Positions 46,594 to 50,175 of a DNA stretch of 64,000 bases are shown piece after piece. A program made the position numbers and the translations under genes. The notes beneath the pieces are model-generated. The model was not told the DNA's origin and searched no databases. It was given only the letters and a program-made list of their open reading frames with translations. How positions within the stretch are numbered: the first letter of the stretch is position 1; each line of letters starts with the position of its first letter. This stretch comes from Campylobacteraceae bacterium (GTDB lineage: Bacteria; Campylobacterota; Campylobacteria; Campylobacterales; Sulfurovaceae): positions 2,886 through 66,885 of the forward strand of contig JAMOSL010000028.1 of the NCBI GenBank assembly GCA_027063105.1. Direction: 5' to 3'.

Positions 46594-47499
46594 TTATCTA
46601 TTATTAAGTTGAAGTTCAATTCTCTCTTTTAGTTGTATTAATTCTAATGCTGTTACGTCTTTAAATTGTGAGTTATTAAAAGTATTCTGTCTTTTTGCCA
46701 ACCTTCTAGTATTTATTATTATTTTTTCTTCTAACATGTTTATATCTAATCTTCCATCAAAATAATCTAATGTCTCTTTTATTCCTATAGATTTCATAGA
46801 ATTAGGTGAACGATTATATTTTTTTTCAAGATATGCTACTTCATCAATTAAACCTGTTTCTATCATTTTCTTAGTTCTTATTTTTATTCTTTCACGCAAA
46901 ATATCTCTATCTGTATTAATAGAATATATAGGCAACTTACCTATAATTGTAGATTTTGGTGGATTGTCTCTAAAATAATCTGTTGGGCTTTGAGTTGTTG
47001 ATAGATATATACTTAATGCTTTTTCTATTCTATACTTATCATTAGGAAAGATTCCTGCCATGTATTTATTATCTACATTTACCATCATTTGATACATTTG
47101 TGGCATTTCATATTTTAAAAGATCAGCTACTTCCTCTTTTGTCTCTTGTGAAATAGTGGGAAAAGAAGATATACCATCTATTAGGCTTTTTAAATAGAAA
47201 CTCGTTCCACCTACTATTATTAAATTTTTGTTTTTGTTTTTAGCTTTATTATATATTTTTTTATAAAGTTTTATAAATATAGTAACATCAAAAGCTTCAT
47301 TGGGATAGATTAAATCTATTCCATAATGTTCTATGCCATCTCTCTCTTCTATTGTAGGCTTTGCTGATACAATATCTATCTCTTGGTATATAGATAAAGA
47401 GTCAAGAGATAAGATGATGGCATTAAACTTTTTTGCAATATCAATTGATAACTGAGTTTTTCCAGAGGCAGTTGAACCTATAATTGCTATTTGTCTGAT
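46594..47499 (-). CDS. miaA: tRNA dimethylallyltransferase; N-terminal boundary uncertain (no ATG/GTG/TTG start)
   Basis: The frame is open from 47511 and encodes KALDIRQIAIIGSTASGKTQLSIDIAKKF...DSLSIYQEIDIVSAKP (P-loop and MiaA motifs) upstream of the first ATG at 47106. The end given here is a candidate ATC start preceded by AGAAAG. Confidence 0.75.
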   Translation of the reverse strand: MRQIAIIGSTASGKTQLSIDIAKKFNAIILSLDSLSIYQEIDIVSAKPTIEERDGIEHYGIDLIYPNEAFDVTIFIKLYKKIYNKAKNKNKNLIIVGGTSFYLKSLIDGISSFPTISQETKEEVADLLKYEMPQMYQMMVNVDNKYMAGIFPNDKYRIEKALSIYLSTTQSPTDYFRDNPPKSTIIGKLPIYSINTDRDILRERIKIRTKKMIETGLIDEVAYLEKKYNRSPNSMKSIGIKETLDYFDGRLDINMLEEKIIINTRRLAKRQNTFNNSQFKDVTALELIQLKERIELQLNNR

Positions 47500-47511
47500 A
47501 TCTAATGCTTT

Positions 47512-48330
47512 CTAGTTTGGGTTTACTAAATAATAACTTCCCATAAAGAAGATAGGTATTAATATAAAATATTTAATTGCAACAGCTGTAAAACTAACAA
47601 CTTGACAACCTGTACAAGATATAACTTTACTTGCTTCATATTTAGCATAAGCTAAATATCCGATTGTTAATAGAAATGTCATTATTGTTGCAAAAATTCC
47701 ATAATGATATAATGTTTCTAAAGTCTCTTTTTTCAAAGAAAATAATGGAGTAAATAGAGTTAGTCCTTGAAAGAATAGAAGTTTATTAATTGCACTTTTA
47801 AAATATTCTCTTTTTGAGAAGTTACTATCTGAATTAAATTCACCTTTAGCACCGTTTATTGATAATTTCTTTTCTACCATTTTTCTATGTTTTCTATCTA
47901 GTTTATTTGCAAAAGTTCCACCGAATGTATAATCAAATTTTCTTTGAAGAAGATAACTAAAGTGACCAGAGACAGTCATTGAGTGTTGTTTCCCCATTCT
48001 ATCTTGATATATAAATGTAATTTGTTCATGTCGAGGTATCTCTTCTTCTATATCTGGCATATATAATGATGTCTCAGAGGAGATAGTTTTTCCTGCTGTT
48101 TTAAGTATTCTAGGATTACAAAAGGTATGCCATTCACCATGCGTATCTTTTGCAACAACAACAGATATCGGAATAGCTATCTGAATTGCAGCTAAACCTT
48201 CAGTGTCATTTGCCTCAATAGTTTCTTTCATATCTTGGACAAGTTCATCTACCTCATCATTAAATTTTCTTACATCAGTTGATAGAATATTTATTCTTTC
48301 ATCAGGGTAACGAATAAGCTCTTGTATCAT
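47512..48330 (-). CDS. Peptide-deformylase-like protein with substituted metal ligands and a C-terminal membrane anchor
   Basis: 272 aa. YPDERI and TEGLAAIQIAIP fit PDF motif 1. ETSLY replaces EGCLS, and QRKFDYTFG replaces QHExDHLxG. The C-terminal third has three hydrophobic helices. Confidence 0.7.
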   Translation of the reverse strand: MIQELIRYPDERINILSTDVRKFNDEVDELVQDMKETIEANDTEGLAAIQIAIPISVVVAKDTHGEWHTFCNPRILKTAGKTISSETSLYMPDIEEEIPRHEQITFIYQDRMGKQHSMTVSGHFSYLLQRKFDYTFGGTFANKLDRKHRKMVEKKLSINGAKGEFNSDSNFSKREYFKSAINKLLFFQGLTLFTPLFSLKKETLETLYHYGIFATIMTFLLTIGYLAYAKYEASKVISCTGCQVVSFTAVAIKYFILIPIFFMGSYYLVNPN

Positions 48331-48461: not shown

Positions 48462-48629
48462 TTAGTGGTGACTCTTTAGAATAAGAATAGTCATTCTAAT
48501 ATTAATAGCAACAAATCTAACTAATTGCCATAAAACACAAGTTCTTAAAAATTTTGCTCCACCTAAAGGTATCATTGTCCCAAATTGAGGACTATATGGT
48601 TCTATATGATTTACATGTTTTTTTGACAC
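48462..48629 (-). CDS. Candidate 55-aa small membrane protein (below the ORF-track cutoff)
   Basis: GTG start with AGGAGATAAA immediately upstream. Sequence: MSKKHVNHIEPYSPQFGTMIPLGGAKFLRTCVLWQLVRFVAINIRMTILILKSHH, with one hydrophobic helix. Confidence 0.35.
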   Translation of the reverse strand: MSKKHVNHIEPYSPQFGTMIPLGGAKFLRTCVLWQLVRFVAINIRMTILILKSHH

Positions 48630-48705: not shown

Positions 48706-50175
48706 TTATTCAGGAATTAAAGTCCATCCTGGTTTAAGTTTTGCTTTCCATATAAATAAATGGTGAAGAATATGCTTAACCCAGTGAGCAGCAAGTCCTA
48801 ATTCTCCAGTTGTACCATTAAGGTCTCTACCAACTCCTGGATATTTTTCAAAATCTGGAACGATTGGGAAAACAGTCATAGCAGCAGCAGTACCAGTAAA
48901 TAGACCTTTACCTGCAGATGCAACACAAGCAGCACCCATTTCTGACATACAAGCAGTATGTGTAGGTTCAGTAGATTTACCTTTTATCATATCAAGAATA
49001 CTTAAAGCAACTGCTTTACCCATCATCGCTGATGGCATACCAGTTCTTGGTGGTGTAGGGTTGATAGGAGTTCCATTTGGTGAACTCATTGGTTTAGAAA
49101 TTAAATGTGGAGGTGCGAAAGCAATTCCTACAGCAAATACATTTCCATAATCTGGGTTTTGAAGAGTTCGTGGCCAGTCAGAAGCTTTCCAATTTTCATA
49201 AGCACCAGCATTATAATTTGCATCAACTTTCATAAATCCATTAGGAGCAAATACTTTACTTGTAATATCACTTCCATCTTTAGCGATAGCTTTTAAGCCA
49301 ACACCTGCGAATGGTGGAATAAGCATAGCAAAATCAAATTCTTGTTCATCCATAGTTCCATCAAGAGACTCATAAGTTACCTTACCAGCTTCAACTTTAT
49401 TAACATGAGCACCAATAATCCAATCCATACCTCTTTCAGCATATAAAGATTCAGCAAATACTTTACTTGAAGTTGCAAATCCACCCATTTTAAAGTGAAG
49501 TCCACCCATACCAAAGTCACCAAGAAATGATTCATTTGTAATAAATGTAATATCTGCCATATCTCTAACACCCTCTGATTTGAGTTTATGTTCAATATTA
49601 AAGATATATTCAAATGCAGCACCTTGACAAGTACACATACCATGACCTGTACCAATTAGGAATGCTTGTCTTTCACCGTTTCTCATTTTTTCAATACAAG
49701 AATCTAATTCGTGACTTGCATGATCTGCATGGTCTGCTGTACATACGGATACTGTATGTTCTCCAAGGTTAGAACCTTCACCAAGACCTGGAGTTGCACC
49801 AAAGTTTAATTTTGGTCCAGTTGCATTAATAAGATAATCATAAGTTAGCTCTTCAGTTGTGCCACTTTTTTCTTCATCTGTATACTCAATAACAATATAT
49901 GGAGTATCCGAATCAGCTTTACCTTCTGGATGAATTCCTAGAGCTTTAGCTTGTCTATAATCAATACCTGCTTTTTTATATACAGGAGCTAGAGGAAATA
50001 CTACCTCTTCAGCTGACATCTCTCCAACACCTACCCAGATGTTTGATGGAATCCAGTTCCAGTTACTATTAGGTGTCACAACAACAACCTCATGTTTTTT
50101 ACCAAGCATATCTTTTATGAATGTAGCAGCTGTATGTCCTGAAACACCACCACCCATTATTACTACTCTTGCCAT
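48706..50175 (-). CDS. sqr: Sulfide:quinone oxidoreductase-type flavoprotein
   Basis: 489 aa with the N-terminal VVIMGGGVSGHTAA FAD fold. WIPSNIWVGVG and the overall layout resemble long SQR types. The subtype is not determined. Confidence 0.78.
   Translation of the reverse strand: MARVVIMGGGVSGHTAATFIKDMLGKKHEVVVVTPNSNWNWIPSNIWVGVGEMSAEEVVFPLAPVYKKAGIDYRQAKALGIHPEGKADSDTPYIVIEYTDEEKSGTTEELTYDYLINATGPKLNFGATPGLGEGSNLGEHTVSVCTADHADHASHELDSCIEKMRNGERQAFLIGTGHGMCTCQGAAFEYIFNIEHKLKSEGVRDMADITFITNESFLGDFGMGGLHFKMGGFATSSKVFAESLYAERGMDWIIGAHVNKVEAGKVTYESLDGTMDEQEFDFAMLIPPFAGVGLKAIAKDGSDITSKVFAPNGFMKVDANYNAGAYENWKASDWPRTLQNPDYGNVFAVGIAFAPPHLISKPMSSPNGTPINPTPPRTGMPSAMMGKAVALSILDMIKGKSTEPTHTACMSEMGAACVASAGKGLFTGTAAAMTVFPIVPDFEKYPGVGRDLNGTTGELGLAAHWVKHILHHLFIWKAKLKPGWTLIPE

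Follow-up and report, generated by a model that had tools for sequence, protein, structure and literature searches.

The C-terminal helix of Escherichia coli peptide deformylase (PDF) is a ribosome-binding element, and formyl recognition by PDF uses the metal centre of the enzyme. The peptide deformylase homolog of Staphylococcus aureus is inactive and its motifs are substituted. To our knowledge, the inactive paralogues of the deformylase gene def in Firmicutes are soluble proteins of the size of the def product, with no membrane module, no CxxC motif and no sqr neighbourhood. Here we analyze a gene on the minus strand of a 64,000-nucleotide stretch of DNA (hereafter the window; positions 2,886 to 66,885 of contig JAMOSL010000028.1, assembly GCA_027063105.1) from a Campylobacteraceae bacterium placed among the Sulfurovaceae. 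Its product, PDFL (PDF-like membrane protein), resembles the Firmicutes paralogues in that a further gene of the PDF family, its catalytic motifs degenerate, accompanies an active def. Judged by its residues, PDFL is a conserved non-catalytic derivative, that is, a pseudo-enzyme, of peptide deformylase. It carries a C-terminal membrane module, and its gene usually lies downstream of a gene for a sulfide:quinone oxidoreductase (SQR).

Type 1B PDFs (EC 3.5.1.88), represented by the structures 2EW5 and 2EW7 from Helicobacter pylori and 1BS4 and 4AZ4 from E. coli, have the fold and the C-terminal helix in common with PDFL. In contrast to these enzymes, PDFL possesses about 115 extra residues, which comprise three membrane helices and a CxxC motif, its metal ligands and catalytic glutamate are replaced, and its gene is found beside sqr, not fmt or clpP, in genomes that also contain a normal def. 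A 'peptide deformylase homolog' of S. aureus is mentioned in PMC2064037. On the side of the cluster partner, the described SQRs of Campylobacterota belong to types II, IV and VI (PMC4584964), and the partner of PDFL is a homologue of SQR. SQR is treated in the same Sulfurimonas paper as a stand-alone, single-subunit monotopic enzyme (PMC4584964). Likewise, the SQR literature that we searched, in which SQR is single-subunit and monotopic, makes no mention of a small open reading frame (ORF) or a deformylase-like gene as its neighbour, and a full-text literature search returned no report of a connection between sqr and a deformylase-like gene, nor one of a dead PDF anchored in the membrane. We regard PDFL as a pseudo-enzyme descended from PDF that is new in its private membrane module and its genomic partners.

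The PDFL gene and its parts in the window are the following, with the basis of each assignment in brackets.

47512..48330, minus strand: PDFL, 272 amino acids, ATG to TAG (ORF list, Pfam, homologues, ratio of nonsynonymous to synonymous substitution rates [dN/dS])
47857..48330, minus strand: PDF-fold domain, predicted to be cytoplasmic, residues 1-158, including the basic C-terminal helix 146-158, RKHRKMVEKKLSI (AlphaFold2, Foldseek, alignment with 2ew5)
48181..48198, minus strand: remnant of motif 1, GLAAIQ, residues 45-50, with Gln50 kept (structure alignments, family tally)
48061..48075, minus strand: degenerate motif 2, residues 86-90, with ETSLY for EGCLS and the Cys ligand changed to Ser (alignments, family tally)
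47929..47946, minus strand: degenerate motif 3, residues 129-134, with QRKFDY for QHExDH, the first His changed to Arg, the catalytic Glu to Lys and the second His to Tyr (alignments, family tally)
47524..47811, minus strand: membrane module, residues 174-269, with three hydrophobic helices (~183-199, 210-229 and 244-268) behind an amphipathic lead-in, predicted N-in/C-out (AlphaFold2, hydropathy, charge pattern)
47605..47616, minus strand: invariant CxxC (CTGC, residues 239-242, followed by the invariant Gln243) at the start of the third helix, at the predicted cytoplasmic membrane interface (four family alignments)

A preliminary description of this locus, made from the letters alone, had proposed that the first part of the protein follows the PDF fold, and this homology was borne out by profile, model and structure comparisons. 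PDFL gives a significant match to the Pfam model PF01327 (Pep_deformylase; E=1.3e-29, 103 bits against a gathering cut-off of 22.8), in which residues 3-149 cover profile positions 2-155 of 156. Among solved structures in the PDB, a phmmer search returned H. pylori PDF (2ew5, E=8e-17) as the best sequence match, followed by E. coli PDF. The alignment with 2ew5 is collinear over residues 3-157 and includes the C-terminal helix; helix 146-158 is the counterpart of the C-terminal helix of type 1B PDFs. An AlphaFold2 model made from an 80-sequence family alignment reached a mean predicted local distance difference test score (pLDDT) of 87.3, most values being >90 as far as residue ~130. When this model was compared by Foldseek with the E. 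coli, H. pylori and other PDF chains, template modelling scores of 0.86-0.92 (target-normalised) were obtained at a root-mean-square deviation of about 2 Å and 26-29% identity.

To define the state of the catalytic site across the family, 97 distinct PDFL members were aligned with the canonical def product of the genome to which the window belongs. The column of the Cys ligand (Cys90) is occupied by Thr in 74 members, Ser in 21 and Cys in only 2. At the first His ligand (His132) we found Arg 87 times, Gln 9 times and Glu once, while the catalytic Glu (Glu133) is replaced by Lys (84), Gln (6), Met (4), His (2) or Tyr (1), and the second His ligand (His136) by Tyr (85), Phe (10) or Ile (2). None of the 97 members has His at either ligand column or Glu at the base column. 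By comparison, structural PDF residues are kept (E. coli numbering): Glu88, Gln131 and Asp135 in 97/97, Gln50 in 93/97 and Gly139 in 90/97. Within motif 1 (GxGxAAxQ), which in PDF binds the substrate backbone, no member has the first Gly, 56/97 have Ala in the Gly45 column, and the Gln is present in 93/97. In some clades motif 3 reads QQMMDF or QQQMDF rather than QRKxDY.

The substitutions in ETSLY and QRKFDY and the retention of GLAAxQ, as first described, were thus confirmed at residue level, and the claim of a pseudo-enzyme stands, with His, Glu and His replaced in 97/97 members and Cys in 95/97. Intact ligands at shifted positions, which would speak for a displaced metal site, were looked for in the same 97 members and were not found: in no column of the PDF-like domain does the share of His exceed 49% or that of Cys 8%. 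A displaced metal-ligand site is ruled out by this lack of an alternative conserved His or Cys column in the domain. As a separate observation, the very divergent members P0152, P0161 and P0162 keep the motif-2 Cys ('EECIS', 'ESCES' and 'EHCVS', respectively) while both His and the catalytic Glu are gone, and may be intermediates in the loss of the metal site.

A canonical def is present elsewhere in the same genome, on another contig (G000:C202), where it adjoins clpP and encodes a protein of 178 amino acids with intact EGCLS and QHEMEH; the bona fide gene that the preliminary description had thought worth looking for therefore exists. All but one of 401 sampled Campylobacterota genomes contain a def-like match. 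NCBI and JGI records call members of the PDFL family either 'peptide deformylase' or 'hypothetical protein'. All four NCBIfam models that name a 'peptide deformylase' score PDFL below their cut-offs, including TIGR00079 (79.4 bits against 103.95), NF009484 (78.3 against 190) and NF001159 (69.5 against 125). The name 'peptide deformylase' used in the databases is wrong for PDFL, and this misnaming inflates the def counts of carrier genomes. The def entry in a transcriptome supplement of Sulfurovum indicum is the gene annotated 'def' (IMZ28_RS10910), which we take to be the canonical def.

The three hydrophobic helices that had been noticed behind the PDF-like domain, and with them the anchoring in the membrane, were supported by the model and by the hydropathy of the family. 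AlphaFold2 places helices at residues 174-197, 201-235 and 240-269, preceded by a disordered linker (pLDDT <50 at 167-170). In the window protein only the second and third transmembrane segments (TM2 and TM3) exceed a Kyte-Doolittle value of 1.4 in a 19-residue window; family-wide, the median of the best 17-residue window is 2.0 for both TM1 and TM2, and the third segment averages 1.7 across its 25 residues. Charges are distributed unevenly around the helices. Averaged over the family, 2.6 Lys and Arg stand against 1.4 Asp and Glu before TM1, 0.6 against 1.5 in loop 1 and 2.1 against 1.0 in loop 2. According to the positive-inside rule, a three-helix topology with the N-terminus in and the C-terminus out is predicted, and therefore the PDF-like domain and the CxxC would both face the cytoplasm at the membrane surface.

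Both cysteines of the CxxC are present in 100% of the 97 members, and Cys239, Cys242 and Gln243 (C-T-G-C-Q) are the only invariant residues in the C-terminal half of PDFL. A third Cys ('CPTFS') precedes TM1 in 88% of members; it has been lost from the clade nearest to the window protein and from the window protein itself, which has Asp168 (NSDSNFSKREY, 47827-47829) instead. No Pfam model matches the membrane module. In an exhaustive profile search of 1.84 billion representative proteins, the module was recovered in only 49 clusters, of which the full-length ones measure 255-274 amino acids with the module at residues ~156-272; it is therefore essentially private to the PDFL family. The possibility that the module is also carried on other N-terminal domains was considered and rejected, the architecture being the same throughout the 49 clusters save for fragments and two odd records. 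These records, P0139 (320 amino acids) and P0143 (182 amino acids), have the last two helices and the CxxC behind an unrelated N-terminal sequence, represent the only departures in architecture and are probably chimeric or mis-called metagenome ORFs.

How widely the variant occurs, a question already raised by the preliminary description, was answered from a protein database and from genomes. The database contains 139 full-length relatives, nearly all of 270-275 amino acids, with 50-92% identity and E values down to 1e-85, and a six-frame search of the 401 Campylobacterota genomes extends the family to about 30% identity. Intact frames of 255-283 amino acids with 30-92% identity were recovered across families. 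The window protein itself shows the defining traits of the family: a dead motif of the QRKxDY type, three C-terminal hydrophobic helices and the invariant C-x-x-C-Q. Compared with its nearest relative (locus L110, 92% identical), PDFL has a dN/dS of 0.083 (0.085 for the PDF-like domain and 0.080 for the membrane part), close to the 0.088 of SQR for the same pair. PDFL is under strong purifying selection.

Within the genome sample (families f1 to f14), 16/20 genomes of the window's own family f1 have a full-length PDFL. The loci of f1 group with Sulfurovum and Nitratifractor records on the family tree, and f1 is probably Sulfurovaceae. Full-length PDFL also occurs in f7 (28/34 genomes; loci grouping with Sulfurimonas and Sulfuricurvum on the tree), f8 (7/8), f9, f10, f12 and one f6 genome. 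None was found in f2, f3, f4, f5 and f11 (118, 158, 7, 3 and 19 genomes, respectively, with matches of def strength only), nor in f13 and f14. Of 80 loci from the species-level collection, 76 are labelled Campylobacterota, two Epsilonproteobacteria and two bear no taxon label. Among named sources PDFL is restricted to Campylobacterota; the most divergent clusters carry no organism label, and this distribution is not proof of absence elsewhere. Some Sulfurimonadaceae genomes contain two PDFL copies in addition to def, giving three matches.

Upstream of PDFL and on the same strand, two further genes complete a cluster.

48706..50175, minus strand: SQR homologue, 489 amino acids, long form (type IV or VI lineage), without signal peptide, first gene of the cluster (PDB and Pfam matches)
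48462..48629, minus strand: small ORF, 55 amino acids, GTG start, second in the cluster (93 loci have it between SQR and PDFL)

The SQR homologue matches the structures of the SQRs from Aquifex aeolicus (3hyv, E=4.4e-40) and A. ferrooxidans (3sz0, E=8e-33) as well as Pyr_redox_2 in Pfam, and has Cys aligned with three cysteine positions of 3hyv ('siCtaeha', 'sCfGpayef' and 'aiCia'), in agreement with an FAD-binding flavoprotein disulfide reductase fold and the redox cysteines of type I SQR. It is 66-88% identical in all related loci and near-universal in its family (37/40 genomes). Type IV SQR is near-universal in Sulfurimonas (Han & Perner 2015, PMC4584964), and solely on the basis of this near-universality in its family we favour type IV over type VI for the SQR in the window.

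The small ORF is characterized by the motif TMxP...RTCxxWQxxRFxxINxKMxxxxxKSH, which includes one near-invariant Cys, and by an amphipathic hydrophobic C-terminal helix. In 85 distinct sequences of 50-66 amino acids, R29, Q35, F39, N43, M46, K52 and S53 are invariant and C31 is present in 95%. Its dN/dS amounts to 0.10-0.13. Searches of Pfam and NCBIfam returned no match apart from a chance hit to NdhL at E=0.69. By its conservation the small ORF is a real gene.

The order SQR, small ORF, PDFL, from upstream to downstream on one strand, was found in 19/20 loci of the genome search; at the twentieth (L005) the contig extends only ~1.5 kb upstream of PDFL. SQR and/or the small ORF lie upstream of PDFL in 64/80 named genome loci, and the same order recurs in metagenome contigs and in the complete genomes of Nitratiruptor sp. 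SB155-2 (AP009178.1) and Nitrosophilus kaiyonis (AP025696.1), where PDFL is only ~30% identical to that of the window. On a maximum-likelihood tree of the family, 83/97 members are SQR-linked and are spread over the whole tree, while the unlinked ones fall into about four groups. The triad spans at least three families of chemolithoautotrophic Campylobacterales, namely Sulfurovaceae, Sulfurimonadaceae and Nitratiruptoraceae. The median gaps between its genes are 31.5 nt and 86.5 nt, with PDFL lying 11-250 nt downstream of the small ORF. No terminator-like site was found between the triad genes on the coding (minus) strand, and a promoter scan of the cluster performed no better than shuffled sequences. 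The linkage of PDFL to sqr and the small ORF is like that of an operon. The genes outside the triad vary by locus and include miaA, rpsI/rplM, a PsrA-like Mo-oxidoreductase, dbpA and an SDF transporter.

Taken together, these data are consistent with PDFL being a non-catalytic, cytoplasm-facing membrane accessory of a three-gene SQR module, an interpretation to which we give a probability of about 50%. In such a module, the three PDFL helices and the cysteines would serve to dock the amphipathic small protein, the monotopic SQR or both, and the dead deformylase groove would be reused to bind an extended peptide segment or another ligand. PDFL might in this way assemble, stabilise or regulate SQR. 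The CxxC and Cys31 of the small protein, joined by the third Cys in the 88% of members that have it (the window protein does not), could form a thiol, sulfane-sulfur or metal site.

Electrons from sulfide enter the respiratory chain through SQR in those Campylobacterota that are the dominant primary producers of hydrothermal vents, sulfidic caves and oxygen-minimum zones. If the proposed role is correct, this SQR usually has two unstudied dedicated partners, a 55-amino-acid Cys protein and a dead deformylase with a CxxC anchor, and heterologous assays of SQR that include only the flavoprotein may overlook some of the system. PDFL would at the same time be a clean case of an essential translation enzyme that was duplicated and reused as a membrane-bound binding module.

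A bolder version of the accessory role, which we regard as quite improbable, is that PDFL and the 55-amino-acid protein act as dedicated biogenesis factors for the SQR, which has no signal peptide. The groove would capture a nascent or N-terminal SQR segment at the membrane and the Cys helices would help to insert, translocate or load it; in a variant of this idea, three or four cysteines would form a sulfane-sulfur acceptor that takes polysulfide from SQR on the cytoplasmic face. If true, this would bear on the long-standing question of how SQRs that lack export signals come to their position on the membrane.

Several observations weigh against a role of PDFL as an SQR accessory. PDFL is frequent but dispensable for this SQR, since three near-complete (99-100%) genomes of the same family (G329, G172 and G289) retain SQR and a small ORF of 50-55 amino acids while PDFL is absent genome-wide at E<=1e-5. 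The small ORF is thus a tighter partner of SQR than PDFL is. Moreover, 12/97 PDFL members are located away from any SQR. In a paralogue clade of Sulfurimonas (L085, L089, L092, L094 and L104), PDFL follows genes for a MerR regulator, an AhpD-like CMD protein (PF02627) and a DsrE-like protein (PF02635), and in another clade (L029-L031) it lies between DUF4332 (helix-hairpin-helix) and DUF309 genes. Finally, a shared gene neighbourhood indicates a functional link and not a mechanism.

With regard to these genomes and clades, a gene for a Mo-oxidoreductase with a twin-arginine (TAT) signal (PsrA/TtrA-like, ~805 amino acids) directly follows the small ORF in G329 and G172, and the same gene follows PDFL in loci L025 and L026. 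The DsrE-like protein of the Sulfurimonas clade opens with a hydrophobic, signal-peptide-like stretch. The opposite strand of L029-L031 carries ApbE, DUF3570-like, DUF4266-like and TlpA-like thioredoxin genes in a cluster; Pfam confirmation was obtained at these loci for DUF4332 and DUF309 only. Both non-SQR contexts, MerR/AhpD/DsrE and DUF4332/DUF309, point to sulfur or thiol chemistry and not to translation.

The likeliest of the alternatives, although clearly less probable than the accessory role, is that PDFL is an autonomous membrane protein for thiol redox, sulfane-sulfur or metal handling. The Cys module would then be the working part and the PDF-like domain only a scaffold, and SQR would be one context within a reactive-sulfur response and not a bound partner. 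Such a function would fit the restriction of invariance in the C-terminal half to C239, C242 and Q243, the third Cys in most members, the neighbours of the Sulfurimonas paralogues, with their signal-peptide-bearing DsrE-like protein, and the three genomes in which SQR and the small ORF occur without PDFL. However, a mere scaffold is difficult to reconcile with a PDF-like domain that is as constrained as the membrane part (0.085 vs 0.080) and keeps E88, Q131 and D135 in 97/97 members, which suggests a role of its own, and the linkage to SQR extends over the whole tree.

The preliminary description had raised binding to nascent chains, formyl-Met peptides or the ribosome at the membrane. It seems improbable that PDFL serves as a membrane tether for ribosomes or nascent chains, in which the dead PDF domain would dock at the exit tunnel via its basic helix and/or bind formyl-Met N-termini and thereby hold translation, for example of SQR and the small protein, at the membrane. 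The type 1B C-terminal helix is indeed retained and basic at residues 146-158, and the domain that carries it is predicted to be cytoplasmic. Nevertheless, the sequence of this helix is only moderately conserved and the helix doubles as the linker to the membrane part, the metal centre used for formyl recognition is absent from PDFL, no conserved neighbour is related to translation, and some genomes that keep SQR dispense with PDFL altogether.

Very unlikely, in our view, is a metal-independent enzyme that would act on another amide, ester or sulfur substrate through Glu86, Gln50 and Asp133 together with the new Arg130, Lys131 and Tyr134. Although E86, Q129 and D133 are invariant, Q50 is nearly so and the replacing Arg, Lys and Tyr are conserved in 87, 84 and 85 of 97 members, what is retained is the structural set found in every PDF, and the QQMMDF and QQQMDF clades show that the replacement residues are no fixed catalytic set. 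The literature searched contained no precedent, and we know of no metal-independent enzyme derived from PDF. A decaying def paralogue or an annotation artefact without function deserves next to no weight: every catalytic residue is lost, but PDFL is not a decaying or chance frame because its dN/dS is ~0.08 and 139 full-length homologues exist, with frames intact at 30-92% identity and motifs invariant.

Downstream of PDFL in the window lies miaA (46594-47511, minus strand), which matches TIGR00174 with 244 bits and is the sole miaA found in this 81%-complete assembly. The preliminary description had placed the PDFL stop codon in frame with, and 2 codons upstream of, the miaA frame. The TAG is indeed in frame, but the miaA frame is open right after the stop ('VNPN*KALDIRQIAIIGSTASGKT') and its first start-like codon, ATC at 47497-47499, is the fifth after the stop; no ATG, GTG or TTG occurs before the P-loop. 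A coupling of PDFL to miaA is ruled out, as miaA is absent from this position in all other loci, more than 100 in number, including the 92%-identical relative L110. The link suggested by the adjacency was accordingly not upheld, the arrangement being incidental and peculiar to the window. At L110, the DEAD-box helicase gene dbpA starts 15 nt past the PDFL stop; in the window, miaA comes between PDFL and dbpA. The sequences of the two loci stay parallel through 'TAGAAxGxATTAxATAT' before they diverge exactly at the dbpA ATG of L110, which suggests a recent insertion or deletion at this junction.

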